From contig CM097884.1 of the NCBI GenBank assembly GCA_044892505.1, positions 133,796,001 through 133,860,000 of the forward strand: DNA of 64,000 bases, given 5' to 3'. This stretch comes from Schmidtea nova (Eukaryota). Positions 6,806 to 63,379 of this stretch are shown one piece after another (within the stretch, counting starts at the first letter, position 1; every line of letters starts with the position of its first letter). The notes under the pieces were generated by a model. It saw only the letters and a program-made list of their open reading frames with translations, was not told where the DNA came from and did not search any database. The position numbers and the translations under genes are program-made.

Positions 6806-7154
6806 TGTTGGGCCCGCCAAATCACCTAAAACCACAATAAAACGAACAAAAGCATGAAACAATAAAGAAATAATAAAAATAAAAATAGCAAGAAAAACAA
6901 ATTAAAAATAACAATAAAACGACAAATAATAATTGATAAATTTTCAGTAAAAGGAAATTTTGAAAATAAACCGGTAAACAACCGCAAAAGGGGGCCTGAA
7001 ATAAGAAAAAATAGAATTAAATAAAATAATAGTGCAAATAATTAATTAATTATTTGAAAAATCAGGACCACCCAGCGAGAAACCGGAAAAGGAAACAAAA
7101 TAATGTTTAGATTAGAATAAAATAATAAAAAATACTTTGATGGACGGCCTGATC

Positions 7155-7192
7155 CTGATTGGTCAATCCAACCAGACGGATCAGTATAAATA
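7155..7192 (+). promoter_or_regulatory. Putative LTR Pol II promoter: reverse CCAAT box and TATA box
   Basis: CTGATTGGTC (about 7155-7164) and TATAAATA (7185-7192). Copies lie at +26723 and +53455. Position is inferred, with no transcript data. Confidence 0.55.
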
Positions 7193-8197
7193 CCGATCCA
7201 AAAATCACAACAAGAGACGTTTTACTTTTCACTTACAATCAAGACTAAACTTTGATTTAAGTAATATTTCATTTAACAAAACGAGAATTTTTTGAAAAAC
7301 AGAATTCAAGTACGGAACGTAATTTTTATTGTTATTTTTTATAATGTACCCATGATTTTTATTCAATTAAAATTTTATATGTAAACGTCATTTTATTTGT
7401 TTTTGATATTGATATTTTAATGCATATAGTTATACTTCCTATGCTGCTCACGCGGCGAGGGAGTCCGAGTCGTCGTTGTGGGGCCTCAGGGTCTCACATG
7501 GCGGTTCAACCTTTTTATTATTTAGTTTAGATGTGGAATTTTATTTAGAAAATTTGATTGAATTCTTAGTCTAGTACAGACCATTTACTAATTATTTAAG
7601 TCTGGGTTGCACAACGGACGAAGGTCGAGGGCCAAATAGGGAGATTGCGGAGGGCGGATTGATAAGGAGGGACACCCCATGGTAGGGCATGCTCATCCTT
7701 TGAATTTTTAGTCAATTGAATCGTAATGGAACCTCCCGCATGGAGAAACAGTGAGCAACAAATAAAATAAATTTGAATAATTTCGCTGAAATGAGAAAAT
7801 TCATCGTAGTCTAAAGTCCGATTTCATTCGGAATCAGCATCTCGCCTACAAAATTATAATATCGATAAATTCCGATCGCGTTGGAATGCGTCGGAAAATC
7901 CAAATTAAATTAGTTACTAAAAATAGGCCGATCGTCGTATATGGCGCGGTTTCCCAAGTTATTCTCCGATCGCTGTATACAGCGCGGAAATCTGTATTAA
8001 ATTCTATATTCCTGAATGCTGTATATAGCACAGGACTAATTATGAACTCTTTATTACGACCGTGGTAGATCACGGCGGAAAAAGATAAAATTAATCTTAT
8101 TTTAAAGTAACTTTTGTGATTATATGCGGTATAAATGAATTATCAACAAATTCCCTCCGGTAAATCACATATTTTATATTCAATAAATGTAATATAG

Positions 8198-8677
8198 ATG
8201 TCGACAGCCGAACTTAGGAATCAATTAACTCAACTACGGAATGTGGAACAAAGGAATATACAGAATGGAAAGATCTCGCAGCTCAAGGATCTACCGGCAT
8301 CGATATTGCGAACCCTCAATTGCCAGATATATAAGTGGCGACATGGGTTTGGCCGAAAATGCCCGTTCTCGATATGGACAGGAGGGAACGACCAAATACT
8401 CTATAGAGGAGGACCGAACTGGCCGATTTCCCAAAGGCCTTATTCAAACAAATTTGGCCGACTTATCGTACTAGTCAAGGACACAGATGGACGGACAAGC
8501 CGTGTAATTTATTGGGGGCATATCCCTCGTCGGGAACTATGCCAACTAGGCCTACACGAATTTCTACCACGAAAACCATTCGGCAAGGAGTGCCAGAAAG
8601 GACAACCCTCATTCTCTTGGGCTCGTCTTCGTCGGAGGCCGATTAACAGCGAATTCCATAGCTTGTTTCGGAGATAA
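8198..8677 (+). CDS. LTR-encoded hypothetical protein A (159 aa); copies at 34921-35400 and 61653-62132
   Basis: ATG-initiated ORF in a GC-richer island of the LTR, flanked by AT-rich spacers. No domain was recognised. Confidence 0.45.
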   Translation: MSTAELRNQLTQLRNVEQRNIQNGKISQLKDLPASILRTLNCQIYKWRHGFGRKCPFSIWTGGNDQILYRGGPNWPISQRPYSNKFGRLIVLVKDTDGRTSRVIYWGHIPRRELCQLGLHEFLPRKPFGKECQKGQPSFSWARLRRRPINSEFHSLFRR

Positions 8678-8864
8678 AAAACTGATTGACAAATGTGTAA
8701 ATTGTGTTCAAATATTAATGTTCAGTGGTGTTTTTATTTTGTTGTTTTGAGTTTTTGTTCAGTGTTTTTTAATAGTTCGTATTCGTAACCTAATAATCCT
8801 ATAATCAGATTTTAATTTTTCACATAATTTAATCATAAAGTAAATCTCCTAAATAAATTATAGA

Positions 8865-9458
8865 ATGACCACCGATTTGATACAGAGAGAATTGGAAAAG
8901 ATGTGGCGGATCCGGAGAGCCCAGGACAAAGAATTGGGTCTCCTCAAGGCACAATTGATCAAAGCAGAGGCACAGATCGCATACTTGCGCAAAAGCTGGT
9001 TTGCTCCGGCCCGAATGAAGGAGCAAATCAGCAAAACCGAACGCGCCCAACAGACCGCAGCCGATTATCAAATGGAATGGGAGGCTACAAAGATAGAGCT
9101 CCGAAAATGCCTCCATTCCGTAACTGCCTCATATATCGAGAAGGAACTCAGAGAGCAAATCCGTCCGGTTACGTACCAAGCTTGGACATCCGAAAAGAAG
9201 ACTGTAAATTCCATTGGCACGGATGTCGCCGATCTAATCGAAAGTCGGAATGAGCCGGTTTCAGCAGTAATTCCATCCACCTCAACGGCAAATGCGCACC
9301 AAAAACGCAAGCGCATTGGGCAGAAAAGGCGAAGACAGAGGAAATTATTCGCGCAGCGATTACAAAGTCAAGTGGATGGTCTACATCAGATGACCGAAGA
9401 GAACTTATTGAAGGAAATTTTCCCTTCAGCTGGAGTTTTTACAGAACTAATTAAATAA
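8865..9458 (+). CDS. LTR-encoded protein B (197 aa), coiled coil plus basic NLS-like patch; copies at 35588-36181 and 62320-62913
   Basis: ATG ORF with a heptad-like N-terminal half and KRKRIGQKRRRQRK. No family was recognised. Confidence 0.55.
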   Translation: MTTDLIQRELEKMWRIRRAQDKELGLLKAQLIKAEAQIAYLRKSWFAPARMKEQISKTERAQQTAADYQMEWEATKIELRKCLHSVTASYIEKELREQIRPVTYQAWTSEKKTVNSIGTDVADLIESRNEPVSAVIPSTSTANAHQKRKRIGQKRRRQRKLFAQRLQSQVDGLHQMTEENLLKEIFPSAGVFTELIK

Positions 9459-9930
9459 AATTTTGGGTTATCTTAAAAAATTTATGTTTCCTTTAAATTG
9501 ATTTGGTAAATTGACAAATAATTAGATCAATATAGTATAAAAGTATAAATTCACATCACGAATTATCTAGTAAAGGCAAATAAATTATTAAGCGAGCAGT
9601 TTGATTTAAACGCTTCCCGCAGAATACGAAATGTTGAAAATAAATTTTCTAAAAAGATTATTGCGGAATATCTAAGCAAATGATTTAAGCATAAGTCCTT
9701 CTAACGGCAGCAATGGACCCGTAAACATAAATGGGGAGTAGTACTAGCGATAGTGCTCACCTGCCCATCATTGTTTAACCACCCTGCGCATCACCAACTT
9801 GATTATATAGGGAAATAATCAAGGGCGCTTGAGTGTAAAATTGCAATTTTATGTATGATCATGGATGAGGGATCCCTAGTCATTGTTAGAACATTTTTCA
9901 TCTAACCCCTCCATGAACCCAGCATAAATT

Positions 9931-9948
9931 TGGGGGCTCAGCCGGGAT
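9931..9948 (+). promoter_or_regulatory. Primer-binding site, tRNA-Pro-like (second copy 36654-36671)
   Basis: TGGGGGCTCAGCCGGGAT lies 6 nt after the LTR end and matches the canonical tRNA-Pro PBS TGGGGGCTCGTCCGGGAT at 16/18 positions. Confidence 0.85.
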
Positions 9949-10253: not shown

Positions 10254-10715
10254 ATGGAGGAAAAACTGAAGGAAATCGAAGAATTTCTCAACACGGAAAG
10301 CGAAACATTAGAAACGATTGGCAAGAAAATAAACCGATTTAGAGAAATTGAATTTCAGGAACCCACAACACAGACTGAGGAAACAGAGGAATTAATAAAG
10401 ATAACAGAAAGAACAAGTAAAATCGACATAAAGACCCGCTACAAATGGTACAGAGCACGATTAGAAGATGCAGAACTAAACATTAAGTTCAGGCAAATAG
10501 GACAACAATTAACCCCAACATACAATCGATGGAGGGCGCAAGGGGTAGAAGCAGCGAAAAAATACCGACAGTGCTATATATGTGAGGATAGGGAGATACA
10601 AATTATGTTTTTACCTTGCGGACATTTTCGTTTTTGTAAAATATGTGCCAGCAAGCGCGACCTATGTCCTATGTGCAACCTGATGATAGACGATAAAATT
10701 ATTGTATATTTATAA
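10254..10715 (+). CDS. IAP/MDM2-type C-terminal RING-HC protein (153 aa), no BIR
   Basis: CYICEDREIQIMFLPCGHFRFCKICASKRDLCPMC ends the protein, followed by a short hydrophobic tail (IIVYL), as in IAP-family RINGs. Confidence 0.85.
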   Translation: MEEKLKEIEEFLNTESETLETIGKKINRFREIEFQEPTTQTEETEELIKITERTSKIDIKTRYKWYRARLEDAELNIKFRQIGQQLTPTYNRWRAQGVEAAKKYRQCYICEDREIQIMFLPCGHFRFCKICASKRDLCPMCNLMIDDKIIVYL

Positions 10716-11197: not shown

Positions 11198-11547
11198 GAG
11201 ATTTGTCCCTTGAAACAAAGGGTTAGGAGATTTGTCCCTTGAAACAAAGGGTTAGGAGATTTGTCCCTTGAAACAAAGGGTTAGGAGATTTGTCCCTTGA
11301 AACAAAGGGTTATGAGATTTGTCCCTTGAAACAAAGGGTTAGGAGATTTGTCCCTTGAAACAAAGGGTTATGAGATTTGTCCCTTGAAACAAAGGGTTAG
11401 GAGATTTGTCCCTTGAAACAAAGGGTTATGAGATTTGTCCCTTGAAACAAAGGGTTATGAGATTTGTCCCTTGAAACAAAGGGTTATGAGATTTGTCCCT
11501 TGAAACAAAGGGTTATTAGCGGTTTGTCCCTTGAAAAAAAGGGTTGA
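11198..11547. repeat. 29-bp tandem array (11 full units plus 1 degenerate); copy at 37921-38270
   Basis: The unit GAGATTTGTCCCTTGAAACAAAGGGTTA(G/T) starts every 29 bp from 11198 to 11488, with no spacers. Confidence 0.95.
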
Positions 11548-11587
11548 GGCCAATGAGCCTTATTGAATGACCTAGCTAGGCGTTATG

Positions 11588-11940
11588 GAGAAATTAAATT
11601 GAGGCCAAGAGAGCCATTTGAGAGATTAAATTGAGGCCAATAGAGCCATTTGAGAGATTAAATTGAGGCCAAGAGAGCCATTTGAGAGATTAAATTGAGG
11701 CCAAGAGAGCCATTTGAGAGATTAAATTGAGGCCAATAGAGCCATTTGAGAGATTAAATTGAGGCCAAGAGAGCCATTTGAGAGATTAAATTGAAGCCAA
11801 GAGAGCCATTTGAGAGATTAACTTTTGAGGCCAAGAGAGCCATGTGAGAGATTAAATTGAGGCCAATAGAGCCATTTGAGAGATTAAATTGAGGCCAATA
11901 GAGCCATGTGAGATATAAAATTAAGGCCAGAAGAGCCATA
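11588..11940. repeat. 32-bp tandem array (about 11 units); copy at about 38311-38661
   Basis: Unit GAGAGATTAAATTGAGGCCAA(G/T)AGAGCCATTT. One unit in copy 1 is 34 bp (about 11822). Confidence 0.95.
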
Positions 11941-12552
11941 GTGAACTATAGATATATCCGGATAAAATAGTAATAGAGGGAATATAGACCCATAGTGTAA
12001 TCGTCGACGAGATTTAGAGTAGTGCGCACCAGTAGTTAAGAGAATGCGAGTAAAGCTGATTATGCAACCTTAGGTAAAGCATGCAAGGAGAATAATAAAA
12101 ATTGGAGCTGACCGGAGAAACCGGCAGAATAGACAAAAGGATAAGTTAGAGACGAATAATGAGTAGAGATGATAAAATAATGATAAACGAGTCAGAAAGA
12201 CTCAGGGAATTAGAGCGCTCGAGCGACCAATAATTTGGGAAACGGTGGGAAAAGTAATTGATTTGATAAAACATAGATAATTATTACGACATAAACAGAT
12301 AATTGTGACCAGTCTATAGATAATTTAAATAGACTAAAAATAAAGGGGAATCTGGGAATTGGGAAATAATGAAAACCCAGTAATAAGTAATCCCGAAAGA
12401 AAGTGAATAAAAGCGCGACGATAACAATAATGTATCGTTGAGGACCTTTGTATTTTAGATATACAAATCAATCAAATCAAGCAATCAAGCAAGAAGAATC
12501 AGAACACGATAAGAGATAGGACAAGAAAATTGAGTATACAAAAGTAATCCCC

Positions 12553-15500
12553 TTGAGAAAAGGAGCAAAGAGTGTCGTAGTAAAGCCAACGGAAAAGAAA
12601 GTCGGTAGCAACATTAACAAAAAAGACAAAACTAGTACTACAACAAAATCAACAAAAAAGCAGAAAGCCGGCAAAGATAACCCACAAGGGAGTAAATCGA
12701 GGAAAATAATAAGAGATAAATCGATTACCGAAAACGATAAATTGTCAATAGTAAGCAACAGCTCAAGTAACAAAGAAAACCAAGCCGAACCCAAGGAGAA
12801 CCAAGCAAGTGAAATAGAGAGCGACGAAACTAACAACAATAATATCGAAGAAATAGAACACGAGATAGAACAAGAAGAAGAAATCGACGAAACTAACAAC
12901 GATAATATCGAAGAAGTAGAAAACGAGGTAGAACCAGAGATAGAAATCAACGCGAGTGATAACGAAAGTATAATATCAGATAACGAAGGAATAAAAGAAA
13001 CAGAAAGCGATTCAAGCTCGAGTAAAACGGAAGACGAACATAACAACGAACTAGAAACAAGAGGAAACGAAAGTAAAATAACTCAAGACAGCGGAATTGA
13101 AATGGGTGAACCAAGAGAAGAAATAAAGGATAAATTTTCAGGAGAACCGTTTAACGGAGATGCGAGTAAATTAGAAACCTTTTTAAAAGAATTTGGCATA
13201 TTCGTGGAGGTATGCAAGTGGAAAGCTGAAACAACGGTAAGCAGAATTCAGTTATATTTGAAAGATAGTGCATTGGACCTATATTTGGAAGCGAAAAATG
13301 GTACCAATCCACCTACAAGCTGGACAGCGATAAAGGATTTTTTCCAACAAACATTTGGAATAAATAAAGTGCTGAGCGAGGCATTCATAGAATTCTCAAT
13401 GAGGAAACAAAAGATGAATGAATCTAATGCGGTATACGCGAGCGAACTGAAAAAATTAGCAAAATCGGTATTCAAGGATGGAGGCCCAATAAACGAGGAG
13501 TTAATGGCAGCTATCTTCATAGGAGGACTAAAAAGACCCGACATAAGAGCGCAAGTAGGATGTCAAGGATGCAAAACCATAGATCAAGCGTTAGAAACAG
13601 CTAACCGATTTGAATTGCATATGATAGGAAGTGAGGGCAGAATTTATTTAGCCATGGACACAGCACAAACCGAACCAGAGGTAAATCTCAACAATCACAT
13701 TCCAAATTCGCAACAATTAAACCGACCACCCCCTCAACGAAGGAATGAAGGAAATAAAGTGCAGAACTTTGGAAACCAAAACAATTACAACCCTCAAGGA
13801 CAAACAAAACAATGTAAAACATGCGGGAAGTTGGGACACTGGCAACAAGAATGCTATCAAATTTTGAATTGCGGAAAATGTGGAGTTAAAGGACATTCGG
13901 AGAGTAGATGTTCTACAATAATCTGTTTTAATTGCGGACGACCTGGTCACTATTCAAGAAATTGCGGACAAAAAAGTAATCAACGAGGAAACTGGCAGAG
14001 TAATGGGAACCGACCAAATTACGGAAATCAAGCAAATACCGTAAACCGACCAGATTATGGAAACCAACAAAACAACAATAACAATAATCAGAACAAAACT
14101 ACCACCAAAGAAATTCATTTGATGCAAGAAGTTCAAAGGTTGACGGAACTGATAAACAACACGGCGAGAGGAAATCCGCAAATCAATCCACAACAAATTA
14201 GCATGATGAGAAAGATAGAAAGCGAAAACGAACTATTAAATCGAGAAAGTCAGGCACGACACGCTCAGGAATGGGCAAGAATACAAAGGGAAGATGAACA
14301 AAAACAACAAGAAAGAGAACGACAACCTCTAAGAATTAACATGCTAAGAGCAACAAACCAAACAGACACTCGCGAGAAAGAAACCACACTGGAAATGAAT
14401 TCGATAGACCCGAATCCAGCCGACAACAAAAGTCAAAAGGAGATAGTACAAAAAGATGAGGAAGTAGAAAAAGAAACAGAAAAGGAAGTGGAAACTGAGA
14501 TAAACCAGGAAGAGAGAAGAAAAATTTGGAAAAAAGGAATGATGGTAATCATGCCCAACGACCATATGTTTCGATTCCAATATAACGCAAAAGAAAAGGT
14601 GGAAATACTGTTCAATAAAGTAAACCAGATGATTCCAGGAGTGACAAAACTGCCCAGAGAAGCGTTCTTACAAATAGGAGATGCACCATCAGTAAAATTG
14701 AAATTAACGGATATATGGGAAAACGTGGGAGTAACAGAGACAAAAAGAAATGTGATGAGAATTAAAGAAATAGAACCAGAAGAAATTCCACCACCAATAC
14801 GTCACGAAACCCGAATCCGGCGAATATTTGAAGGAAAAATGATAAGAAGACGTTTAAAAGAGATAGACGAGTTGGGAAAGAAAATGGAAAAAGTCGAAGT
14901 AATAGAGGATAAGAGTGAACCAACACCAGAAATTGACAAAAACGAACCAGAACCAACGGAGAATATACAAGGGGAAACGAACCAAACAGCACATATTAAT
15001 ATGCTAAGAAATACCACCAGAGAGTTCTCCGATGAGGAAGAAGATAGTGACATCAGTAGCCTAGCAGGAGACATATTAAACGAATCCGAAGACGAAAATA
15101 AAGAGAGAGAAGTAATAAAGACCTCAGAACCTACACAGATAAAAGTAGATGAAATCCAGAAATTACTAGATAACTCGCTAGAGGTAATATATAACGAAGA
15201 GTTCATGGACAAGAAACAATATCGGAAATTCATGAAAGCATTATTACAAATGAACTACAAAGAATGGTTACAAGACCGGGAAGTAGACATGTTGAATCGA
15301 TACGTAGGGAAATTAATAGAGGAACCACTCCTCAATTACACCATCTCAATAATAATAAATACATCTACACCAAGAATCTGGATCAAAACTCCATTTACAG
15401 ACGATATCTACAGATGGGTAGAGGATAGACTAGGGAGCTCATATAAAAACAAATTCATCTATTCGCAGAATAGACTCGTAAAGAAAAGAACTCACTTAGT

Positions 15501-18087
15501 AGAAACAGGTATATGGCCAGGAGAAATAACCCTGTTATCAATATGTGATGAAAAAGAAGAAGAGAACCTACAAGAAGTTGCAAGGGAAGCAAACGCGTGC
15601 TTCGAAAGGAGAATAAAACCACGGTTAGAATACGAGAAAGAACGAGTTTTGCGAAAGAATCTAAATTCCCTGATAGAACAAATCATACCACAAGTCAAAA
15701 AACATAGAAAAGAGTTAATGAGAAACGAATACGAGAAATTGAAACGATGTATTGAGTGCATACGTGACACAAGCCACACGAGATGGTCACAGATCTCACA
15801 CGACAAATTAATCGCAAAAATGGGAAAAACAATGTTTAGACAAGGGAAAATAACAGATCTAAAAATTTCAGTAGCATTACCTAATGAGGACACCAAAGAA
15901 ATTGAAGTGGTAGCGGATTGCACCATTAAAGAATTAATAAATGTCATCAATGAGACACTAGTGCAAAGAGAACCAGAAGACGAATGGGAAGACGACATAA
16001 TCATACAATACAACGAACATGTATTATGGGATCACGATGAGAGACGACTATATAAAATCGGTATATGGGATAATCACCAAACAATCCACGTTAGCAGAAT
16101 GGACGATACACCAAGGGAAACTGCTAAAGATGAGAAAAGAGAACGGGAACGACGGAAAGAAGTTGTGCGTAAATTACAACAAATAGTAGAAATTTATCGA
16201 AATTGGCGAATTTGGCCAGAGTGGGAAAATGTATTAGAAGAACTCAATCTCAACAGACGAATACGAACACCCGTAGAAAAACAATGGAACGAGAAAGGAA
16301 AATGTTGGGAACCAAAAGAAGGAGAATATGAAGAAGAATATAAAAGAGGGATAGAAGATGACCGCGAACCAGAGATAGGAAGAGTTTGCATGGTAACAAG
16401 GAAAGCTACGCCAATAGACCTAGATGGACCAGAAACAGCGGCCATGTGGTTAGAAAGGGAAAAGCAAAAAACGGAAGAATTTGTCGAAATATTGAAAACT
16501 AATGCGCACGGTAAGAGAAAATTAATAAAGGGTCTCGCAGATTTTTTCGTGGTAAATGGGGAGGATATAACATGCTTGCGTAAAGTAGCAAAAGCAATCG
16601 CGGAATATAAAAGAGTTAACGAGTGGTGCCCGGAACAACTAGACCACGTAATTAGGAAATGGAGAAATCAAGAATTCTCGCAAGAAATTCCACAGAAAGT
16701 ACATTTAAGAATAATATATCCAAACAAGGATAAGGAAGAGTTGTGGGTAGGAATAGCAGAAAAAATTCGAGATATCAAAAAGAAATTGAGATACGAACCA
16801 CCATTCCATTTACAACACCAAGGACGATCATTAGATAACAGTTTAGAAATTGGAATAACGCCAGCACAACTAGATCTCATGAATACCTTGACAGTAGAAG
16901 CAATAGCAGGTCAACCATTGAAACATAAAGAAGAAAACCATAAACCACACGGAAGTATAAGTACGCCGAGCCCGATGAAATCAGTATTAACACCAGGGAC
17001 AAGTTCGAGACGATCTGAGACAACACCCAGAGGAACCAGAGAAAGGACTCCACCACAACCATACGACGTGGACGAAATCCTAACAGATAGCGATGATATG
17101 ATAGAAGAATTAACTGAATTAACAAAGGAAAAAGACGATAACATTTTCGAAAGAATACAAGAATTACCTACGACAATACAAGTAACCAACACCGGAGAAA
17201 CAGAAGTCGAAGAAGAAATAATAATAGAAGAAGTAAACGATCTGACAGAAGACGAAACGAGAAGAGCAAATGTCGAAAATGTACAATTAACACAAGAAAT
17301 GGAAAGATGGTTAGAAGAAAGAGCTAACGAACCAAGAGATGTCACGGAAGAAACCGGACGGGCAACAAGATTTGTGGAAACAGGCACAGGAATGGATAAA
17401 CGACCTAGAGGTAGACCTAAGACAGACCCAGCAACTGTAGTTGTAAGAAATAAAGACGAAAAGAGACAAGATCAATGGGAATTATGTTTAAGGAAACTAA
17501 ATAAAATTGCGGAGATGAAAGAAAAAGAGACAACACCAATATGTCAAGGGGAGGAATGGATATCAAAAACAATAATGGAAATATTGGCAATAATTGATCC
17601 GGAATTGAGAAAATACTGGCGGATAACTGAGATAAGCGAAAAGGCGAAGTCACTACACAGCGCAATCGCACCCATCCTACCAGAATTCATAAAAGAAAAG
17701 ACGAAGTCAAATCATTTAGACTGGCAAGGAACCACGATGTTAATAAAGAAATTGACAGAAGGAGCGGAAACTGATAATAAATACGTAATAGCCATCGCAT
17801 ACACGATCTACAATCTATTAGCACTGAGTAGAGGTCGACCAAAACCCACTGCATTAGAGAGACATATAAAAAATACCGCAAAGATTATAGCTAGAGAAAT
17901 AGAACCTCACGTTATTAACAAAGGAGGATGGGAAACATTTATAAAAACTAACCAGAAGAAAACGCAAGCCAAGAATATGAAAAAGAAATTCGAAAGAATT
18001 AGGAAAAGAACAAGCAGGAACAGGAAACACGAAGCCATCAATGAATTTGAGTTCTATAATAATTATGATGTTGATATGGATGATTAG
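12553..18087 (+). CDS. gag: Unit 1 Gag-containing polyprotein (Gag, 3 CCHC, Ubl-like x3, AT-hook, Bcl-2-like), truncated by an 11-bp deletion
   Basis: Retrotransposon Gag core from about 13120 and knuckles at 13813-13965. It diverges from the unit 2 ORF after 17999. The ORF-track start is TTG; the first ATG is at 13102. Confidence 0.85.
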   Translation: MRKGAKSVVVKPTEKKVGSNINKKDKTSTTTKSTKKQKAGKDNPQGSKSRKIIRDKSITENDKLSIVSNSSSNKENQAEPKENQASEIESDETNNNNIEEIEHEIEQEEEIDETNNDNIEEVENEVEPEIEINASDNESIISDNEGIKETESDSSSSKTEDEHNNELETRGNESKITQDSGIEMGEPREEIKDKFSGEPFNGDASKLETFLKEFGIFVEVCKWKAETTVSRIQLYLKDSALDLYLEAKNGTNPPTSWTAIKDFFQQTFGINKVLSEAFIEFSMRKQKMNESNAVYASELKKLAKSVFKDGGPINEELMAAIFIGGLKRPDIRAQVGCQGCKTIDQALETANRFELHMIGSEGRIYLAMDTAQTEPEVNLNNHIPNSQQLNRPPPQRRNEGNKVQNFGNQNNYNPQGQTKQCKTCGKLGHWQQECYQILNCGKCGVKGHSESRCSTIICFNCGRPGHYSRNCGQKSNQRGNWQSNGNRPNYGNQANTVNRPDYGNQQNNNNNNQNKTTTKEIHLMQEVQRLTELINNTARGNPQINPQQISMMRKIESENELLNRESQARHAQEWARIQREDEQKQQERERQPLRINMLRATNQTDTREKETTLEMNSIDPNPADNKSQKEIVQKDEEVEKETEKEVETEINQEERRKIWKKGMMVIMPNDHMFRFQYNAKEKVEILFNKVNQMIPGVTKLPREAFLQIGDAPSVKLKLTDIWENVGVTETKRNVMRIKEIEPEEIPPPIRHETRIRRIFEGKMIRRRLKEIDELGKKMEKVEVIEDKSEPTPEIDKNEPEPTENIQGETNQTAHINMLRNTTREFSDEEEDSDISSLAGDILNESEDENKEREVIKTSEPTQIKVDEIQKLLDNSLEVIYNEEFMDKKQYRKFMKALLQMNYKEWLQDREVDMLNRYVGKLIEEPLLNYTISIIINTSTPRIWIKTPFTDDIYRWVEDRLGSSYKNKFIYSQNRLVKKRTHLVETGIWPGEITLLSICDEKEEENLQEVAREANACFERRIKPRLEYEKERVLRKNLNSLIEQIIPQVKKHRKELMRNEYEKLKRCIECIRDTSHTRWSQISHDKLIAKMGKTMFRQGKITDLKISVALPNEDTKEIEVVADCTIKELINVINETLVQREPEDEWEDDIIIQYNEHVLWDHDERRLYKIGIWDNHQTIHVSRMDDTPRETAKDEKRERERRKEVVRKLQQIVEIYRNWRIWPEWENVLEELNLNRRIRTPVEKQWNEKGKCWEPKEGEYEEEYKRGIEDDREPEIGRVCMVTRKATPIDLDGPETAAMWLEREKQKTEEFVEILKTNAHGKRKLIKGLADFFVVNGEDITCLRKVAKAIAEYKRVNEWCPEQLDHVIRKWRNQEFSQEIPQKVHLRIIYPNKDKEELWVGIAEKIRDIKKKLRYEPPFHLQHQGRSLDNSLEIGITPAQLDLMNTLTVEAIAGQPLKHKEENHKPHGSISTPSPMKSVLTPGTSSRRSETTPRGTRERTPPQPYDVDEILTDSDDMIEELTELTKEKDDNIFERIQELPTTIQVTNTGETEVEEEIIIEEVNDLTEDETRRANVENVQLTQEMERWLEERANEPRDVTEETGRATRFVETGTGMDKRPRGRPKTDPATVVVRNKDEKRQDQWELCLRKLNKIAEMKEKETTPICQGEEWISKTIMEILAIIDPELRKYWRITEISEKAKSLHSAIAPILPEFIKEKTKSNHLDWQGTTMLIKKLTEGAETDNKYVIAIAYTIYNLLALSRGRPKPTALERHIKNTAKIIAREIEPHVINKGGWETFIKTNQKKTQAKNMKKKFERIRKRTSRNRKHEAINEFEFYNNYDVDMDD

Positions 18088-21000
18088 CACCGATAGCGCA
18101 ACAGCATTCGAAGTGTTTGATTGCGACCAAATGAAGTTAGGAGAAAAGTATTCATTGAGGGGTACGGAGCAATGCAAAGATGCAACTCCAGTAGAGTTAC
18201 AAAAGATTAAAAAGGAACAATGGTACCACGTGTATCAAGAAGCAGAACTCATAAAGACAATGGTGAATGAATGTAAGGTGCAGAAGACGAGATTCGCTTT
18301 CTACTGCGGGAGAGGACATTATTCAGCAATTGTCATGCCAGGAACGGAAAGAGAACCAATCGTGTTACAAGGAGAAGACTGCGAAGCACTGTTTAAACAC
18401 GGAGAAGTAACAACAAGAGATAAAATCAAGATAAGAGGAAAGCCAGGAATGATGATGCAACAGACGTACTATGTAGCAGGACGGATTACGGGAGGAGAAG
18501 GATATTGTCAAGGAGAAACCTACCCGATATTCGGAGTACCCGCAACCAACTTAGTGGTGATGGATACGTACATAGTCGAACTAAAAAGCTACGAAGCATT
18601 CTTTGAACCCACAACGGGAGAAATGAAAACGTTATCCATGTGTAAAATCGACAGGAGCATGTGTCAAACGGGAATGTCAACATTAGTGTACAAACCAAAG
18701 GTAAACGAATGTCAGTTACAACTGCTACAAGGAGCAAAGTTCGACGAAATCCAAGGAAAAACGTTCCAGGAAGAAGACGATGACGACAAAGATAGAGCAA
18801 AGCATCTCAAGGAAGCTTTAGAGAATAAAAGACAACTGAAACCGGATCATAGAGAAAAACGAATAGAGATGAGAGCCACACCAACAGTATTGATAACCAC
18901 AAATCAGGATGTGGGAATGAGGTTCATAAAAGGGAAAGCAACCCTTAAGTGTAGTACAACGGTATACGAAACGAATTACCCAGGAATATATGTGTCAAAA
19001 CAAGAAGTGCCGAATGCGAAACCCAAAATCGACACAATGGATATCAAACTACACTTGTATGTGAATAATAAAATGGATTTCCTATTCCATAGAGGACAAG
19101 CCTCATTACAAAAAGTGTACTACGATCTAATAAACAATGATTGTATACTGAATCGAGAAATATTAAAGACAAAGTTGGCCGTGGCGATTACGAATCCAGA
19201 TAGAGCGATGCCATTATTACCACTGAGAGAAGGACATTTCGGAAGAGTGGTCGGAGAAGCAATGTACGTATACATTTGCGAAAAAACACACGCGTCGCTA
19301 GCAGCAACAACACAGTTGAAACCTGGAACCTGTACAAATGAGTTAGAAATCGATTACAAAGGAAAAGTACGATACGTTCAACCGGTGACGAGAATCATCA
19401 ATCCACCAGGGTTTGAACCAAATCCATTCAACTGTAGTAATGCGTACGGACCGCTCTATCAGAAACCAGATGGTAGATGGGTTATGTTCCCAGGAAGATC
19501 CGAAGTGATAGCACCAAGAGAATTCGAGCTAATGCAGTTGTCAAAGGATAGGCAATTCAGCGACGTAGATGTCTCAAACAACGGAATATATAGTCCGAAA
19601 GATTTAGAAGCAGCAAGGCAGAATATATTATTTCCAGCGAGAAGAGAAGCATTACTGTCAAATATCGTAACGATAACGGGAGGAACGAATTATCGAGAAG
19701 GACCGAATTATGAACTGTTGTTGTCACCAGCACATTTCAAGAAAGCCACCGAAAACATGATGAAAGCAATGTGGGGAAGATTCTTGATATTCGGACAAAT
19801 GATGGCTGGAATACTGGGGGTTATATTAATAATCCAAATCGTCAGAGTGATAATAACGCAAATGCTCGCGTGTTTTGACATCTACAAGAGAGAAAAGAAA
19901 GTGAATTGGAAAATGGTAGTAGGGTTTTTACCATTCCTTGCGAAAACGATGGTGTTACACGGGCACTCAAAAGATATCCACCGAATAAAAAGACTCCTAA
20001 AGATATTAGCAAAAATGAAGGGAACAGATGAAGAAGTAGGACGAAAATTTAAAAAGATAATGAACGACGAACAAGCAAGACAACAGCTCAAGAGAGAAAG
20101 AAAAGGTTTATGGGAGAGGATGAAAGGATATAAAACCCAAAATGATTCGAGTGACGACGATGATGACGATGACGACTATAAGGGAGGACAAGTGTATAAG
20201 AACCAAGCACCACAATACATCGAAAAGAATCCAGCCGACGCATGGAAATGTTACGCACCTCCACCAACAATGTATCAAGAACCACTACAAGGGGGAAAAA
20301 ATAGCACGATGCAAATGATGCCAATGACAAATGTATACCCCATGATACCAGAAGATTATAAAATGAGAAGATGTAGAAGCGTAGATCCACAAGGAGATAC
20401 ACACACGATCGCAGTAATGTCATCCAACACAGGTCCAGTACTAACCACGACAATAGAGATTAACGGAAGAGAAATCGAAGCAATGATCGACACGGGAGCA
20501 AACATTTCCGCCATCGACATCAAATGGATACCACAAGAGCAAAGACGGGAAATAGAAAGGACAAACGTCCATGTAATTGCATGTAGCAAAGAAGTTGTAG
20601 AAGTAGCAGGAAGATGGTGGGTAAAAATACGCCACTTAAATACAGAAATCGATACGTACGTAGCAGTCATACCAGCGTTAAGTGTACCTTGCATCATCGG
20701 AACAGATTTGATGCCAGCATTATTTAAAGAAATTGTAATCGATCTCGGAACAATGAGACTGAAAGATCGCACAGGGCAGATATGCGCAATAGAAGCTAAA
20801 GTGACGAGTTCAAAGCAAATGATCATACCCGCAAGAAAGGAAAAAATATGTTATGTAAAAATAGATCCGACAATCCAAGGGGATATGATTTTCGAACCAA
20901 GTAAAAGATTCGAGAAAAGAAAAGCGTTGCCAATGGCAAGAGGATTAGTCAACATAAATGACAATGGAGAAATCCCAATAAATATGGTAAATTTCGACGA

Positions 21001-30038: not shown

Positions 30039-30131
30039 ATAAATAAAGCGGAAAACTGTAAATATGTAAAAATAAAAACAAGAAAAATCAAAAAATAAAT
30101 GACAAGTCGAATGTATATATTATTGTAGAAA

Positions 30132-32681: not shown

Positions 32682-32723
32682 ATGCGCGGAAACCAAGTGT
32701 AAATAAATTATGTAAAATAAAAA

Positions 32724-56289: not shown

Positions 56290-56863
56290 GGGCGGATTAT
56301 GACTGTAAATAATAGTGTAAATAACAAAGCATTACCGTAATAGTATGGGTATCGATATTATAAAAATTGTAAAAAGCTAGAAAAACAAAGTAAATGATGT
56401 ATATAATTTAGAAATGACCGAACAGGACGAAACAACTGAAATAACTATGGCTATGAGATGGAAGGCACAATGTGATTTATTAGTACGAACAGTCAACTCA
56501 TTACAGAACCAATTAGCGGAAAGACAAATGTTATTATCAGAAAGTTATAACAACTGTTTTGAACAATTACACAGAATAGAAGAACAACAAAGAGCGATAA
56601 CTGAACTCACCAGAGAAAATCAAACGATAAGCAACACCAATCAAAGACAAGCAATAGAAATAAACCATTTAACACGAGGAGAAAGAGAAGGATCCGAAGA
56701 AGGATGGATGAGTTGGGTAATAAATAGATTAAACAACGAAGCGGAACCAGATTCAACGAATGAGCCATAGATAAATAAAGCGGAAAACTGTAAATATGTA
56801 AAAATAAAAACAAGAAAAATCAAAAAATAAATGACAAGTCGAATGTATATATTATTGTAGAAA

Positions 56864-58240
56864 ATGGACAGAGAAGAACGAATAATCGAAATTTTGAGAC
56901 TAGAAAACAGAAAATGGAGCAAGAGACTCACATGCGGAAAATGTAATAATTTATTGCGAGAACCCAGACAAACGATATGTGGATGTAGAATATGTACAAA
57001 ATGTATACAAGAATTAGAGGCAACAGGAATAACAACATGTCCAGAATGTAAAGAGGGAAGAATAGTGTTGGACGAAACTAGAACGGACAAAGCAACCCAA
57101 AGAGAAATTATGAGCACCACAACGGAGTGCGTAAATACACCTTGTACATGGCAAGGACAAATAAGCAATCTAGAGAATCATATGGGAAAATGCGAGGAAA
57201 AGAGAGCCGAATGTGAGAAATGCCAACAGACAATAACTCTAAAGAAGAGAGAACAACACAAGGAAGAATGTAAAGAAGAAGAAATCGCATGCGAGTATTG
57301 TGAAACTCGAGAAACGAGGAGAAAAATCGAAGAAGAACATTTGAATATAACAGAGGAGAAAGTATGCGGACAATATGCAAGTAAATGTCCAAACGATTGT
57401 GAAATAACAGAAGAAATAAAGTTACATGAACATTGGAAAGTATGTACCGAAAGGCCAAGAGAATGCCCATATAACAAGCATGGATGCAAGGAAAAGCGGA
57501 CGCGACAAACAATGAACAAACATCTAGAAGAAGCAGCACTTACGCATGTGGAAATGACAAACGAAACGACAAGAGAAACGGAACAGACAATCCAGAAATT
57601 AGGAAAAGAAGTAGAATCACATAAGATAATGATGAGTTTACTACTAGAAACAAGAGAGCAGTTTGAACTAACTCGCGAAAGAATGGAAAAGAAAATAATA
57701 GCCATAGAAGAATTAGGAAAAGGAATGAAAATACAATATAATCAATTAATACGAGAAATTGACGAAAGAAGGGACTTACCAATCGCACCTTACCTATGGA
57801 AAGTAACAGATTTCAGAGACAAACTAGCAGAAGCCAGAAATATGACGAAAACAGCAGTAATAAGCCCACCATTTTATTTATGGAAAAACGGGGTTAAAAT
57901 AAGATTGAAAGTATACCCAAATGGAGACGGAAGAGGACAAGGAACACACGTGTCAATATTCTTCTCACTATGTAAAGGAGAATACGATGACCTAATAGAA
58001 TGGCCCTTGAAAGTAGGAGTCATTATAAGAATCAAAAGTATGGGAAAACCAGTAGAAAAATTCTTTGAAACAGACAAACATACGAGTACAAGTGAAAAAC
58101 CAACAACGGAATGCGGACTAGCAGCAGGAGAACCAATGTTTATAAGGAAGGAAAACCTATGGGAACGACTATATGCAGACACGCTATACATAGAGATGGA
58201 GAGGCATGAGAAAACGGATAAAAAAGGATGGTTGGCGTAA
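56864..58240 (+). CDS. TRAF: TRAF-family protein, unit 2 copy
   Basis: Same as 30132-31508 except V/E in NL(V/E)NH. Confidence 0.92.
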   Translation: MDREERIIEILRLENRKWSKRLTCGKCNNLLREPRQTICGCRICTKCIQELEATGITTCPECKEGRIVLDETRTDKATQREIMSTTTECVNTPCTWQGQISNLENHMGKCEEKRAECEKCQQTITLKKREQHKEECKEEEIACEYCETRETRRKIEEEHLNITEEKVCGQYASKCPNDCEITEEIKLHEHWKVCTERPRECPYNKHGCKEKRTRQTMNKHLEEAALTHVEMTNETTRETEQTIQKLGKEVESHKIMMSLLLETREQFELTRERMEKKIIAIEELGKGMKIQYNQLIREIDERRDLPIAPYLWKVTDFRDKLAEARNMTKTAVISPPFYLWKNGVKIRLKVYPNGDGRGQGTHVSIFFSLCKGEYDDLIEWPLKVGVIIRIKSMGKPVEKFFETDKHTSTSEKPTTECGLAAGEPMFIRKENLWERLYADTLYIEMERHEKTDKKGWLA

Positions 58241-60260
58241 TGAAGGAAATAACCATGTAAATAAAATGTAGAAACAATATGAAATAACAAATAATCAAAA
58301 ACAATAAAAATAAAAACTGATTAAATATTCTCTTTATCTGTAATTATAGAAATGGGAAATATAGAGGTAACCTTACAAGAAGTAACCGTACATCAAGACG
58401 AAATGATCAGAAATCACATGGAGCGGATTGGGAGATGGATTCATGCCTATTATCGAAAACAGGAGGAATTAGAAAGACAAACCGAAGCACTAAGAGAAGC
58501 CGAGAAAACGAATCAAAGAAGTCGAGAAAAAATAGAAGAAGTCTACAAACTGCTAAGACAACAAAACGAATACTACAAAGAGATGATGAAAGAGCGAAGA
58601 GAGGATAGGGATAGACAACAGATAAAAACAGACCATAAGATCCAGTCAATCACCGAACAAGCAAGATATTGGAAGAAAGAGGCAAAAGACTCTTACAAGG
58701 AAGCAAGGGAGATAATAGAACGAACAGCGTATAGCGATGATTGGAAACTATTTAAAGAGATCGATGAATTAAAAGAGGAATTAGGGCAAAAGATCAGTCA
58801 AGAAGCGTCAAATAAAGTATGGAGTAAGAAAAGACAACAATTTATCAGAGAACAAGCCAAGAAAATTAAAGAATTAACTTATCAAGTGCAAAGAATGGGA
58901 GAAGATTTGGCCAATCAAGAACAGTTAAAAGGTATGCTGACCGGAATGTGGAATCACAAGGAAGAAAACATGAAAAGAGACATAAATGGATATCAAGGAG
59001 TGATTACCCAGAAGAAAATAGAATTAAAAAGAACTAAAGAAAGACTGGAAGAAACGAGGCAGAGTTATGAAGAGAACATAACAAATTTGACAAAAGAAAA
59101 CGAAGAACTGAGAAAGAAGTTGGCAGAAAAACCAATACCAATAAAAGAAACAAGTATCACAGCAGCAGTGACCGAAATGATGGAGAAGGAAGAGAGAGAG
59201 AAAAAATTGACAGAACTGGAAAAACAAATTGAAACCCTAACAGAACAGGCGAACTATCTGGAATACTTATTAGATGAAGAGATCCAGATATCCCACACAT
59301 ACCGAGAAGAAGTAGAAATGTGGAGGAGCACGGTAATATGGATGCCACTCCCCATAAACCAAGTGGAACCTCAAGACGAAGGTTTTCACGAACCCAACGA
59401 AACCCTGGTATAAATGCGCGGAAACCAAGTGTAAATAAATTATGTAAAATAAAAAATGTCAAACTGTATTGACCAATGTATAAAAGAGATGAGAAAGCTC
59501 ACAATAGCAACCCTCCTATGGTTAACAACCATTACCCTACAGAGAGAAGATTTACAACTAACCGAAACCCAATTACGAGCTCTACCCGACAAAACCTACC
59601 AGAAAGTAGACAACCTAATCGAGGAAGTAATTAAAGAAATCAACGAATTCCGACAGAAATACCCCCACAATCAAGACCATCAAATCCAACAAATTTTCGG
59701 TAACCAACAACTGAAATTAAAAGAAACCCGAAAAATCCTGAGAGAGGGTAGAGAGCCCATAAAAAGCCTATCCCAAGCTGAAATAGAATATCAAGAAAAA
59801 TGGATCATAGCAATCATCATAATCCTATCAGTCAGCACAACTATCATCGCAATCACAATCCTACTTGCCTCATATAGAATAAAAATCCTAAAACAAAAGC
59901 AGAAAATCTACAACCAAACCTCCAGACGAGATAACCGAGCTCAAAGACGAATAAGGAGCCATCTCAACCACATTCAAACCCACTACGAGCTACAAATAAT
60001 CAACGAGAGGACCCGAACTCAACCCCAAGCGAGCCAGACGATCGAACAAATTGTATAAACATTATGATAACTTATCGAACTATTGTGACAAATCATTACA
60101 TTTTGACTATTTAGTGACAAACTTTATGATATGTATAAATTCGATCACCTTATGTGATTTTTCTTTGCATGTATAACTTTATAAAACTTTTTATGGATGA
60201 TGAATATAAGTAGTTATGTATAATTAATTGCGGGACGCAATTTTAGGGGTCCCCGGGTGA

Positions 60261-63200
60261 TGTTGGGCCCGCCAAATCACCTAAAACCACAATAAAACGA
60301 ACAAAAGCATGAAACAATAAAGAAATAATAAAAATAAAAATAGCAAGAAAAACAAATTAAAAATAACAATAAAACGACAAATAATAATTGATAAATTTTC
60401 AGTAAAAGGAAATTTTGAAAATAAACCGGTAAACAACCGCAAAAGGGGGCCTGAAATAAGAAAAAATAGAATTAAATAAAATAATAGTGCAAATAATTAA
60501 TTAATTATTTGAAAAATCAGGACCACCCAGCGAGAAACCGGAAAAGGAAACAAAATAATGTTTAGATTAGAATAAAATAATAAAAAATACTTTGATGGAC
60601 GGCCTGATCCTGATTGGTCAATCCAACCAGACGGATCAGTATAAATACCGATCCAAAAATCACAACAAGAGACGTTTTACTTTTCACTTACAATCAAGAC
60701 TAAACTTTGATTTAAGTAATATTTCATTTAACAAAACGAGAATTTTTTGAAAAACAGAATTCAAGTACGGAACGTAATTTTTATTGTTATTTTTTATAAT
60801 GTACCCATGATTTTTATTCAATTAAAATTTTATATGTAAACGTCATTTTATTTGTTTTTGATATTGATATTTTAATGCATATAGTTATACTTCCTATGCT
60901 GCTCACGCGGCGAGGGAGTCCGAGTCGTCGTTGTGGGGCCTCAGGGTCTCACATGGCGGTTCAACCTTTTTATTATTTAGTTTAGATGTGGAATTTTATT
61001 TAGAAAATTTGATTGAATTCTTAGTCTAGTACAGACCATTTACTAATTATTTAAGTCTGGGTTGCACAACGGACGAAGGTCGAGGGCCAAATAGGGAGAT
61101 TGCGGAGGGCGGATTGATAAGGAGGGACACCCCATGGTAGGGCATGCTCATCCTTTGAATTTTTAGTCAATTGAATCGTAATGGAACCTCCCGCATGGAG
61201 AAACAGTGAGCAACAAATAAAATAAATTTGAATAATTTCGCTGAAATGAGAAAATTCATCGTAGTCTAAAGTCCGATTTCATTCGGAATCAGCATCTCGC
61301 CTACAAAATTATAATATCGATAAATTCCGATCGCGTTGGAATGCGTCGGAAAATCCAAATTAAATTAGTTACTAAAAATAGGCCGATCGTCGTATATGGC
61401 GCGGTTTCCCAAGTTATTCTCCGATCGCTGTATACAGCGCGGAAATCTGTATTAAATTCTATATTCCTGAATGCTGTATATAGCACAGGACTAATTATGA
61501 ACTCTTTATTACGACCGTGGTAGATCACGGCGGAAAAAGATAAAATTAATCTTATTTTAAAGTAACTTTTGTGATTATATGCGGTATAAATGAATTATCA
61601 ACAAATTCCCTCCGGTAAATCACATATTTTATATTCAATAAATGTAATATAGATGTCGACAGCCGAACTTAGGAATCAATTAACTCAACTACGGAATGTG
61701 GAACAAAGGAATATACAGAATGGAAAGATCTCGCAGCTCAAGGATCTACCGGCATCGATATTGCGAACCCTCAATTGCCAGATATATAAGTGGCGACATG
61801 GGTTTGGCCGAAAATGCCCGTTCTCGATATGGACAGGAGGGAACGACCAAATACTCTATAGAGGAGGACCGAACTGGCCGATTTCCCAAAGGCCTTATTC
61901 AAACAAATTTGGCCGACTTATCGTACTAGTCAAGGACACAGATGGACGGACAAGCCGTGTAATTTATTGGGGGCATATCCCTCGTCGGGAACTATGCCAA
62001 CTAGGCCTACACGAATTTCTACCACGAAAACCATTCGGCAAGGAGTGCCAGAAAGGACAACCCTCATTCTCTTGGGCTCGTCTTCGTCGGAGGCCGATTA
62101 ACAGCGAATTCCATAGCTTGTTTCGGAGATAAAAAACTGATTGACAAATGTGTAAATTGTGTTCAAATATTAATGTTCAGTGGTGTTTTTATTTTGTTGT
62201 TTTGAGTTTTTGTTCAGTGTTTTTTAATAGTTCGTATTCGTAACCTAATAATCCTATAATCAGATTTTAATTTTTCACATAATTTAATCATAAAGTAAAT
62301 CTCCTAAATAAATTATAGAATGACCACCGATTTGATACAGAGAGAATTGGAAAAGATGTGGCGGATCCGGAGAGCCCAGGACAAAGAATTGGGTCTCCTC
62401 AAGGCACAATTGATCAAAGCAGAGGCACAGATCGCATACTTGCGCAAAAGCTGGTTTGCTCCGGCCCGAATGAAGGAGCAAATCAGCAAAACCGAACGCG
62501 CCCAACAGACCGCAGCCGATTATCAAATGGAATGGGAGGCTACAAAGATAGAGCTCCGAAAATGCCTCCATTCCGTAACTGCCTCATATATCGAGAAGGA
62601 ACTCAGAGAGCAAATCCGTCCGGTTACGTACCAAGCTTGGACATCCGAAAAGAAGACTGTAAATTCCATTGGCACGGATGTCGCCGATCTAATCGAAAGT
62701 CGGAATGAGCCGGTTTCAGCAGTAATTCCATCCACCTCAACGGCAAATGCGCACCAAAAACGCAAGCGCATTGGGCAGAAAAGGCGAAGACAGAGGAAAT
62801 TATTCGCGCAGCGATTACAAAGTCAAGTGGATGGTCTACATCAGATGACCGAAGAGAACTTATTGAAGGAAATTTTCCCTTCAGCTGGAGTTTTTACAGA
62901 ACTAATTAAATAAAATTTTGGGTTATCTTAAAAAATTTATGTTTCCTTTAAATTGATTTGGTAAATTGACAAATAATTAGATCAATATAGTATAAAAGTA
63001 TAAATTCACATCACGAATTATCTAGTAAAGGCAAATAAATTATTAAGCGAGCAGTTTGATTTAAACGCTTCCCGCAGAATACGAAATGTTGAAAATAAAT
63101 TTTCTAAAAAGATTATTGCGGAATATCTAAGCAAATGATTTAAGCATAAGTCCTTCTAACGGCAGCAATGGACCCGTAAACATAAATGGGGAGTAGTACT

Positions 63201-63379
63201 AGCGATAGTGCTCACCTGCCCATCATTGTTTAACCACCCTGCGCATCACCAACTTGATTATATAGGGAAATAATCAAGGGCGCTTGAGTGTAAAATTGCA
63301 ATTTTATGTATGATCATGGATGAGGGATCCCTAGTCATTGTTAGAACATTTTTCATCTAACCCCTCCATGAACCCAGCA
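60261..63379 (+). repeat. LTR3 (3119 bp)
   Basis: Same sequence. Identity with LTR1 and LTR2 stops exactly after …GAACCCAGCA at 63379. Confidence 0.95.

Follow-up and report, generated by a model that had tools for sequence, protein, structure and literature searches.

A shared-LTR tandem of a giant Burro-like Ty3/gypsy element in the Schmidtea nova assembly

The window, a 64,000-nucleotide stretch of the Schmidtea nova assembly, contains two nearly identical copies of a giant retroelement that share a central LTR, an arrangement whose most likely origin, in our tentative view, is unequal exchange between LTRs. The array (LTR-I-LTR-I-LTR) extends over 56,574 bp without a gap and consists of three LTRs of 3,119 bp each and, between them, two internal regions of 23.6 kb. 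Self-alignment gave a single match of 29,854 columns (6806-36648 versus 33529-63380; 99.93% identity), in which LTR and internal region alternate with an LTR at both termini and with repeat periods of 26,723 and 26,732 bp. On the forward strand, LTR1 (6806-9924) is followed by the internal region of unit 1 (9925-33528; 23,604 bp), LTR2 (33529-36647), the internal region of unit 2 (36648-60260; 23,613 bp), in which all reading frames are open, and LTR3 (60261-63379). The LTRs begin with TG and end with CA, and LTR1 contains two ORFs (8198-8677 and 8853-9458) without a Pfam match. A complete element built with the unit 2 internal region measures 29,851 bp. A scan of the window found no N between 5027 and 64000, and runs of N lie 1.8-3.2 kb upstream of the tandem. 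The flank has a GC content of 27%, a value that would suit a planarian host without being diagnostic of one.

The array is bracketed by a TTTT target site duplication (TSD; 6802-6805 and 63380-63383). The two sides agree at 4 bp and this agreement is lost at 5-8 bp; by itself the duplication is weak evidence, since random flanking 4-mers agree with p of about 0.01. LTR2 has neither a TSD nor a spacer, and the 500 bp on either side of it are normal element flanks. Self-alignment and TSD comparison thus bear out the original prediction of a single outer TTTT duplication and a common central LTR. The absence of a TSD or spacer at LTR2 rules out a double insertion at one site or a nested insertion.

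The tandem is inserted into a small non-autonomous element whose own 8-bp TSD survives on both sides (6541-6548, identical to 63498-63505; chance agreement of 8-mers is about 1e-4). The left half of this miniature element (6549-6805) is 257 bp long including the LTR TSD, the right half (63380-63497) is 118 bp long, and 14 of 16 bases of the terminal inverted repeat match the end at 63497. We take the element to be of hAT type from its 8-bp TSD and CAG termini. Because its TSD is kept on both sides, the flanks of the tandem represent one locus, and the interrupted element strengthens the case for a single insertion locus. Recombination between two neighbouring insertions is ruled out by the matching outer TSD and by flanks that are halves of one host element.

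Alignment of the two units over their full length, which had been suggested as a check on the original prediction, revealed seven events in total. Four are SNPs (14234/40955, 20448/47180, 26421/53153 and 30442/57174), and translation confirmed that all are missense, with the L/R, T/M, V/A and V/E changes first reported. An 11-bp indel at about 17993/44715, a deletion in unit 1, and a SNP private to LTR2 at 34213 (LTR position 685) were also found as predicted; LTR1 and LTR3 are identical. The seventh difference had been described as a 2-bp indel at about 11822. A difference is indeed present there, but it is a 3-for-1 replacement (11822-11824) that includes a substitution and alters one unit of a 32-bp array in unit 1 only; the corresponding site in unit 2 is 38545. 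Both indels are located in unit 1, and the widest spacing between successive diagnostic sites is 5,973 bp.

The minisatellite region, with 29-bp (11.9 copies) and 32-bp (10.9 copies) arrays, occupies 11198-11939 in unit 1 and 37921-38660 in unit 2 (forward strand). Copy number and variant order of both arrays are the same in the two units, and the G/T order of the 29-bp array reads GGGTGTGTTTT in each, as had been noted. The differences between the units look biological, because none of the 184 homopolymer runs of 5 or more differs and because the deletion is flanked by 6 bp of microhomology, a context seen at 0.35% of positions. The same substitutions, microhomology deletion and unchanged homopolymer runs rule out an assembler looping over the same reads.

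The repeated element is a Burro-like giant Ty3/gypsy element, as judged against the published description of Burro. All of its ORFs lie on the forward strand. In unit 2, ORF1 (39823-56289; frame open from 39241) encodes 5,488 aa from the first ATG and runs from Gag and three CCHC knuckles through a probable Bcl-2-like domain, env, protease (PR), reverse transcriptase (RT), RNase H (RH), integrase (IN) and ankyrin repeats to FN3-like cassettes. In unit 1, the 11-bp deletion splits this ORF before env. The first piece (12520-18087), from Gag to the Bcl-2-like domain, stops 31 codons past the deletion, and the second (17981-29557), in a different frame, carries env, PR, RT, RNase H, IN and ankyrin repeats. 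The Gag match (PF03732, E 3e-4) is below the cut-off. Pol (47179-50550) has the Ty3/gypsy order PR-RT-RNase H-IN with catalytic motifs present, and the ankyrin region (50860-52500; PF12796, E 3.6e-15) consists of three stretches. A candidate primer-binding site (9931-9948, forward strand) starts 6 nt from the LTR end and presumably resembles the 3′ end of tRNA-Pro; the purine tract, a candidate polypurine tract, is interrupted. Rfam gave no match in 1-40000 of the window.

Accessory ORFs lie on both sides of ORF1. A 153-aa RING-finger ORF is upstream (10254-10715 in unit 1, with no difference from the unit 2 copy at 36977-37438; PF13920, E 5.9e-12). Downstream in unit 2, a 458-aa TRAF-like ORF (56861-58240) combines zinc fingers (PF02176) with a MATH domain (PF22486, E 5e-21) and has only distant matches, with 24-27% identity to animal TRAFs along most of its length. 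It is followed by a 353-aa coiled-coil ORF (PF00038, E 0.005, below cut-off) and a 200-aa ORF that has a hydrophobic stretch and no match (together 58325-60058). The TRAF-like, coiled-coil and small hydrophobic ORFs of unit 1 occupy 30129-33326.

Three parts of ORF1 merit separate description. The Env-like glycoprotein (44773-46620), in frame between Gag and protease, is predicted from its profile match (PF24664 Monjiviricetes_fusion, E 1.6e-71; atlas score 0.94) to be a fusion protein of the negative-strand-virus type. It has a signal peptide, and a transmembrane segment is located at 46531. The preceding helical domain (44203-44703) probably adopts a Bcl-2-like fold, as suggested by fold searches with a low-confidence model (pLDDT 56). 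Bcl-2-family entries filled 41 of 41 Foldseek rows among the matches listed (best E 5e-3) and 21 of the best 24 VIA rows (Z up to 7.7), both below threshold, and Pfam and PDB sequence searches found no Bcl-2 relative. Toward the C terminus (52846-56100), two cassettes bounded by hydrophobic segments contain seven Cys-bearing repeats of about 80 aa each. These membrane cassettes appear FN3-like on weaker fold evidence (model pLDDT 83; VIA Z 7.9, rmsd 2.6 over 73 aligned residues; atlas lead 0.85). The first cassette has no sequence match among 1.84 billion representatives, and a profile search with the repeat found no relative of solved structure. In the main texts covered by a literature search, no paper links FN3 to such elements, which is not proof of absence.

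Burro/GYPSM1 elements are giant gypsy-like elements of planarians according to the Burro section of PMC6431247, and that section is the basis for the following comparison. Both are about 30 kb long (just under 30 kb here) with close to 25 kb of internal sequence, and both encode one polyprotein of roughly 5,000 aa. Gag has CCHC knuckles in each case, 2-3 in Burro and three here. Env is related to mononegavirus fusion proteins in both and lies in frame ahead of protease; the domain before it is Bcl-2-like in Burro and probably so here. Ankyrin repeats, tandem repeats and a MATH/TRAF domain are also common to both. The window element encodes TRAF in a separate ORF downstream of ORF1, whereas it lies inside ORF1 in S. 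mediterranea Burro and upstream in that of D. tigrina. Further differences are the upstream RING ORF of the window element and its C-terminal FN3-like cassettes, of which that section makes no mention. Burro is also described with an Smc-like domain; the window element has the coiled-coil ORF with its below-cut-off match. No BIR domain, a feature of Burro, was matched by Pfam at E 0.01 in ORF1 and six other ORFs of the element, a threshold that a divergent BIR could escape. Pfam likewise found no SUMO/ubiquitin-like or dUTPase-like domain in three candidate segments; HHpred is the method used in PMC6431247.

Protein searches returned no named Burro protein among the relatives found. All eight gag-env-pol polyproteins recovered (P0027, P0031, P0032, P0034, P0035, P0037, P0038 and P0040; 3,036-4,057 aa) place PF24664 ahead of PR-RT-RH-IN. 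The window element shares 50-58% identity with them in RT/RNase H and 42-46% over Pol, and P0032 has ankyrin and ubiquitin-like domains as well. None of the eight aligns with the C-terminal 1,800 aa of the window element. A quick RT/RNase H tree was built from 61 of the 65 matches; P0047, P0058, P0059 and P0066 were dropped for short coverage, and no named Burro is included. In this tree the window element groups with the eight polyproteins (SH-aLRT 99) as sister to all of them. A search for shorter env relatives gave one match among 8,000 candidates scored.

These features suggest the following history. A 29.85-kb Burro-like element would have integrated once into the hAT-type element, its integrase probably generating the TTTT duplication. 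Soon after, misaligned sister chromatids or homologues would have brought the 3′ LTR opposite the 5′ LTR of the same insertion, and a crossover between the paired LTRs would yield LTR-I-LTR-I-LTR, with a solo LTR as the presumed reciprocal product. The seven differences would be unselected genomic mutations that arose since the doubling or that distinguished two alleles. The microhomology-flanked deletion would then have cut the unit 1 polyprotein just after the Bcl-2-like domain, and unit 2, with its frames open, may use the central LTR as promoter. Unequal exchange is favoured by the one outer TSD, the lack of one at LTR2 and flanks that come from one interrupted host element. Unequal LTR-LTR recombination had been among the mechanisms first proposed and becomes the leading one here, although recombination of cDNA into a resident copy had been overlooked.

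The sequence divergence bears on timing. Per branch, the LTRs differ at 1 in 9,357 bp (1.07e-4) and the internal regions at 6 in 47,217 bp (1.27e-4). Because these values match, at about 1.2e-4, the doubling should fall near the time of insertion. The identity of the outer LTRs limits the insertion age to at most about five times the duplication age (P = 0.048 at ratio 5). At assumed mutation rates, about 1.2e-4 changes per site per branch correspond to 10^4 to 10^5 generations, so that the original description of the event as very recent holds as to recency but not as to a fresh event; the whole dating argument rests on seven events. That four of four coding SNPs are missense has a probability of 0.41 under neutrality and 0.039 at dN/dS 0.2, a pattern that agrees with chromosomal drift but not with repeated cycles of transposition under selection.

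The first rival, which we consider unlikely though it is the strongest of the three, is an assembly artefact in which the assembler used the 3.1-kb LTR to bridge the two alleles of a single-copy insertion; in a variant, the I-LTR-I junction could come from reads of a one-LTR circle or another locus. The units do derive from two separate templates that diverge as alleles might (6 events in 23.6 kb), the 56.6-kb structure is longer than ordinary reads and has N runs upstream, and false duplications in long-read assemblies are mostly on the same scaffold according to the relevant passage of PMC9516828. However, the repeat unit begins and ends precisely at LTR boundaries without duplication of any unique flanking sequence, no homopolymer-type errors were seen, and with diagnostic sites so spaced, a true tandem could be traversed by overlapping accurate reads of 10-20 kb. 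In addition, a rice tandem of the same form has been confirmed by spanning reads (PMC11899658). Concatenation of haplotypes, originally named as the main alternative, keeps its place as the main non-biological one. Exchange between homologues gives the same sequence as allele concatenation, and the two cannot be separated by sequence alone.

Slightly less probable again is that cDNA or a one-LTR circle from a sister copy recombined, independently of integrase, upstream into the resident element and supplied unit 1 and the central LTR. This route predicts identical LTR1 and LTR3 with a private central LTR. The observed pattern has a probability of 0.11-0.34 under an incoming copy, compared with 0.109 for early exchange and 0.049 if the exchange came at a random later point, so it is less probable under unequal exchange, although an incoming copy gains only a factor of about 1 to 3 over early exchange. 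The single LTR difference equals the expectation from internal divergence, and the location of both indels in the upstream unit would be equally explained. A precedent is fission yeast, where Tf1 cDNA inserts upstream of a resident Tf2 to form tandems with a single LTR between them, as described in the Tf1 passages of PMC11042837, but it is in that organism that the route was shown. An incoming copy frameshifted before env and pol would need complementation, and the differences bear no sign of purifying selection. Moreover, part of PMC3187697 puts the rate at which retroviral RT deleted a direct repeat of 110 bp at 41% per single cycle. If that rate carries over to this element, arrays that kept their copy number and order through a supposed RT pass would speak for unequal exchange.

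Integration of a preformed dimer, made by cDNA-cDNA recombination or one-LTR-circle read-through and inserted whole by integrase with the differences arising later, is improbable. It makes insertion and doubling simultaneous, in keeping with equal LTR and internal divergence (pattern probability 0.109, indistinguishable from early unequal exchange on present data), and was left open by PMC11899658, but it presupposes an RNA or cDNA intermediate of 53-57 kb, and RT frequently removes long direct repeats (more than 90% for a 701-bp repeat at more than 1.5 kb spacing, in the same part of PMC3187697). Integration of a dimeric cDNA, as in the original prediction, is the least likely biological route.

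Shared-LTR tandems are known from rice (TLI1, TLI2 and 266 candidates; PMC11899658), from Drosophila (in the section of PMC5932611 that attributes LTR tandems generally to LTR recombination) and from fission yeast. Since the class is well documented, the window tandem is a further instance of it and not unusual as such. It resembles the known cases in its LTR-I-LTR-I-LTR order, one outer TSD, gypsy superfamily and very high identity, and rice TLI2, too, sits within a DNA transposon whose own TSD is preserved (PMC11899658). It differs in its 4-bp TSD and in being an env-bearing animal element known here from assembled sequence alone; with a 26.7-kb unit and 56.6 kb overall, it is larger than the 40 kb that the rice pipeline allows for a locus (PMC11899658). 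The main-text Burro passages of PMC6431247, PMC11410931 and PMC8532177 do not mention a tandem Burro, which is not proof of absence.

The element itself is more unusual than its doubling, adding FN3-like membrane cassettes without detectable sequence relatives to a Burro-like architecture. Newly found are the interruption of a hAT-type element by the tandem and the splitting of the unit 1 main ORF by the 11-bp deletion. A stronger combined reading is doubtful: that a real tandem arose by integrase-independent recombination of a 30-kb env-bearing cDNA into its own resident copy, and that the element belongs to a branch of Burro-like endogenous viruses not described so far, with a single polyprotein that would release a pair of FN3-like membrane proteins along with Bcl-2-like, TRAF and RING regulators. 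Seven phased markers at most 6 kb apart make the locus a cheap test case for unequal exchange versus cDNA-mediated recombination, the question left open by PMC11899658. Should the array be an artefact, it would be a clean example of giant LTR elements creating gapless false duplications. An incoming-cDNA origin, if true, would mean that the Tf1 route also operates in a giant element of an animal. If the tandem is real, a 30-kb envelope-bearing retroelement would have amplified in place to a 57-kb array soon after insertion.

Self-alignment of the window revealed one long direct repeat, in which positions 6806-36648 match 33529-63380 with 99.93% identity. Three LTRs (LTR1, 6806-9924; LTR2, 33529-36647; LTR3, 60261-63379), each 3,119 bp in length and bounded by TG...CA, enclose internal regions of 23,604 bp (upstream unit 1) and 23,613 bp (downstream unit 2). 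The full tandem spans 56,574 bp without N. TTTT is present at both outer ends, where the match covers 4 bp and is lost at 5 bp. Full alignment of the two units, LTRs included, yields seven differences. Four are internal SNPs, each of them missense; the others are an 11-bp indel between the internal regions, a SNP private to LTR2, and a 3-for-1 replacement within one unit of a 32-bp array. The two alignments bear out the original prediction of a three-LTR tandem of near-identical units with TTTT only at the outer ends, and recover its missense SNPs, 11-bp deletion and LTR2-private SNP. The array replacement had been described as a 2-bp indel; the difference is real, but its kind is corrected here. 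The variant order in a 29-bp array is as predicted. The observation holds, and its interpretation is supported in part.

By itself, the TTTT match is weak (p of about 0.01 in these flanks). The sequence farther out gives stronger evidence: a small element of about 370 bp has its inverted ends at positions 6549 and 63497 (14 of 16 bases match), each flanked immediately on the outside by the same 8-mer (chance of about 1e-4). Therefore, the entire tandem lies inside one host element. An 8-bp duplication and CAG ends are typical of hAT elements, and we take the interrupted element to be hAT-type from these features. Farther upstream are a hAT-family transposase in two overlapping ORFs (94-2156; PF05699 on the second, E 2e-6), a piggyBac-type transposase fragment (2712-2915; PF13843, E 1.3e-10) and a pair of related, nearly perfect palindromic elements whose ends are ATA-rich (4538-4767, which runs into an N stretch, and 5724-5942). 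Three N runs, either gaps or masks, all lie outside the tandem (3624-3804, 181 bases; 4384-4537, 154; 4768-5026, 259).

DNA-level unequal exchange would give the order LTR-I-LTR-I-LTR, and we place its probability as the origin of the tandem a little short of even. The occurrence of four missense SNPs among four has P 0.41 under neutral drift versus 0.039 at dN/dS 0.2 (selected transposition), and so fits drift better. The unchanged minisatellite arrays would speak against a reverse-transcription step between units, provided that retroviral repeat-deletion rates (PMC3187697, covered portion) carry over to this element. On these grounds, and on the divergence figures given below, DNA-level unequal exchange is favoured, which is also the route favoured for Drosophila LTR tandems in the covered text of PMC5932611.

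It is rather unlikely, though next in probability, that the assembly concatenated two alleles into an apparent tandem. None of 184 homopolymer runs of at least 5 differs between units, and the 11-bp deletion carries 6 bp of microhomology, a state found at 0.35% of positions. The differences between units are unlike sequencing errors in type, and therefore two distinct templates exist, as neighbours on one chromosome or as two alleles. Two points favour concatenation: the units diverge about as alleles would, and there are N runs 1.8-3.2 kb upstream of the tandem. Crossing-over between homologues and allele concatenation yield identical sequence.

Recombination of an incoming cDNA with a resident copy is unlikely. 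Identical outer LTRs with a private LTR2 have a probability of 0.11-0.34 under an incoming copy versus 0.049-0.109 for exchange or for a preformed dimer, a pattern that runs counter to unequal exchange; with seven events no such ratio is decisive. Both indels lie in unit 1, and Tf1 cDNA builds such tandems by inserting upstream of the resident copy (PMC11042837, covered portion). In contrast, the arrays would have to remain unchanged despite reverse transcription, and the missense SNPs fit selected transposition less well. Integration of a preformed dimer is improbable, with an LTR pattern less expected than under an incoming copy. Recombination between neighbouring insertions is ruled out by flanks that form one interrupted host element, and double insertion by ordinary internal sequence on either side of LTR2.

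Per-branch divergence is 1.07e-4 for LTRs and 1.27e-4 for internal regions. If mutation rates of 2.5e-9 to 1e-8 per site per generation are assumed for illustration, this gives a point estimate of roughly 12,000-50,000 generations, and the identical outer LTRs cap insertion age at about five times duplication age.

In unit 2, the long polyprotein frame (ORF1) is open at 39241-56289 and encodes 5,488 aa from its first ATG. It carries three CCHC knuckles (motif scan) and a Monjiviricetes-type fusion glycoprotein (Pfam, E 1.6e-71); protease, RT, RNase H and integrase come next, and then ankyrin repeats. A RING finger is encoded by an ORF of its own upstream, and a TRAF-like protein by another downstream. 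The segment preceding env may be a Bcl-2-like domain: its single-sequence model, low in confidence (pLDDT 56), hits Bcl-2-family folds in all 41 of the Foldseek rows listed and in 21 of the 24 top VIA rows, below the threshold of either tool. In unit 1, the 11-bp deletion at residue 1631, between this putative domain and the env signal peptide, splits ORF1. The 194 codons open ahead of the ATG (39241-39822) include a 63-bp tandem repeat that codes for acidic residues; translation may start at a non-ATG codon, or splicing may be involved. The motif R/H-I-N-M-L-R occurs three times (41053, 41713 and 50617), at the domain boundaries that follow Gag and integrase, and possibly marks protease cleavage sites.

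The C-terminal 1,150 aa comprise seven repeats in two cassettes (52846-56100 in unit 2, with a counterpart in unit 1) with hydrophobic segments at their borders. One repeat, modelled at pLDDT 83, has its best matches among FN3 domains (Z 7.9, rmsd 2.6, 73 aligned), and the atlas gives FN3 as a lead only (0.85). The first cassette has no sequence relative among 1.84 billion representatives. These FN3-like cassettes may be released as membrane proteins.

Each LTR carries a CCAAT-like box, TATAAA (380) and ATTAAA (561) within LTR positions 353-561 (33881-34089 in LTR2), which suggest that U3-R is short and that U5, at about 2.5 kb and with two ORFs, is unusually long. Between the LTR end and the candidate primer-binding site lie six bases (9925-9930 and 36648-36653), against a usual spacing of 0-3.

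The layout closely matches that described for planarian Burro elements (PMC6431247, section 7). Because Pfam shows no BIR domain in the element, unlike Burro, and the comparison is with the published description and not with named sequences, we term it Burro-like. Eight related gag-env-pol polyproteins (P0027, P0031, P0032, P0034, P0035, P0037, P0038 and P0040) share its env-before-Pol order and fall into one group with it in a quick tree; several of them (P0027, P0031, P0034, P0037, P0038 and P0040) carry two or three aspartyl-protease-like stretches, whereas this element has one. The covered text of PMC6431247, PMC11410931 and PMC8532177 makes no mention of a tandem Burro, nor do the covered portions of the literature searched mention FN3 repeats in such elements.

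In rice, 266 shared-LTR tandem candidates are reported, one of them confirmed by spanning reads, with their mechanism left undecided (PMC11899658, covered portion). A rice tandem nested in a DNA transposon much resembles the present tandem in its small hAT-type host. Shared-LTR tandems are common as a class, and this one, known here from assembled sequence, is thus a further instance that is set apart by its size and the nature of its element. A Burro-like element with FN3-like cassettes merits separate attention.
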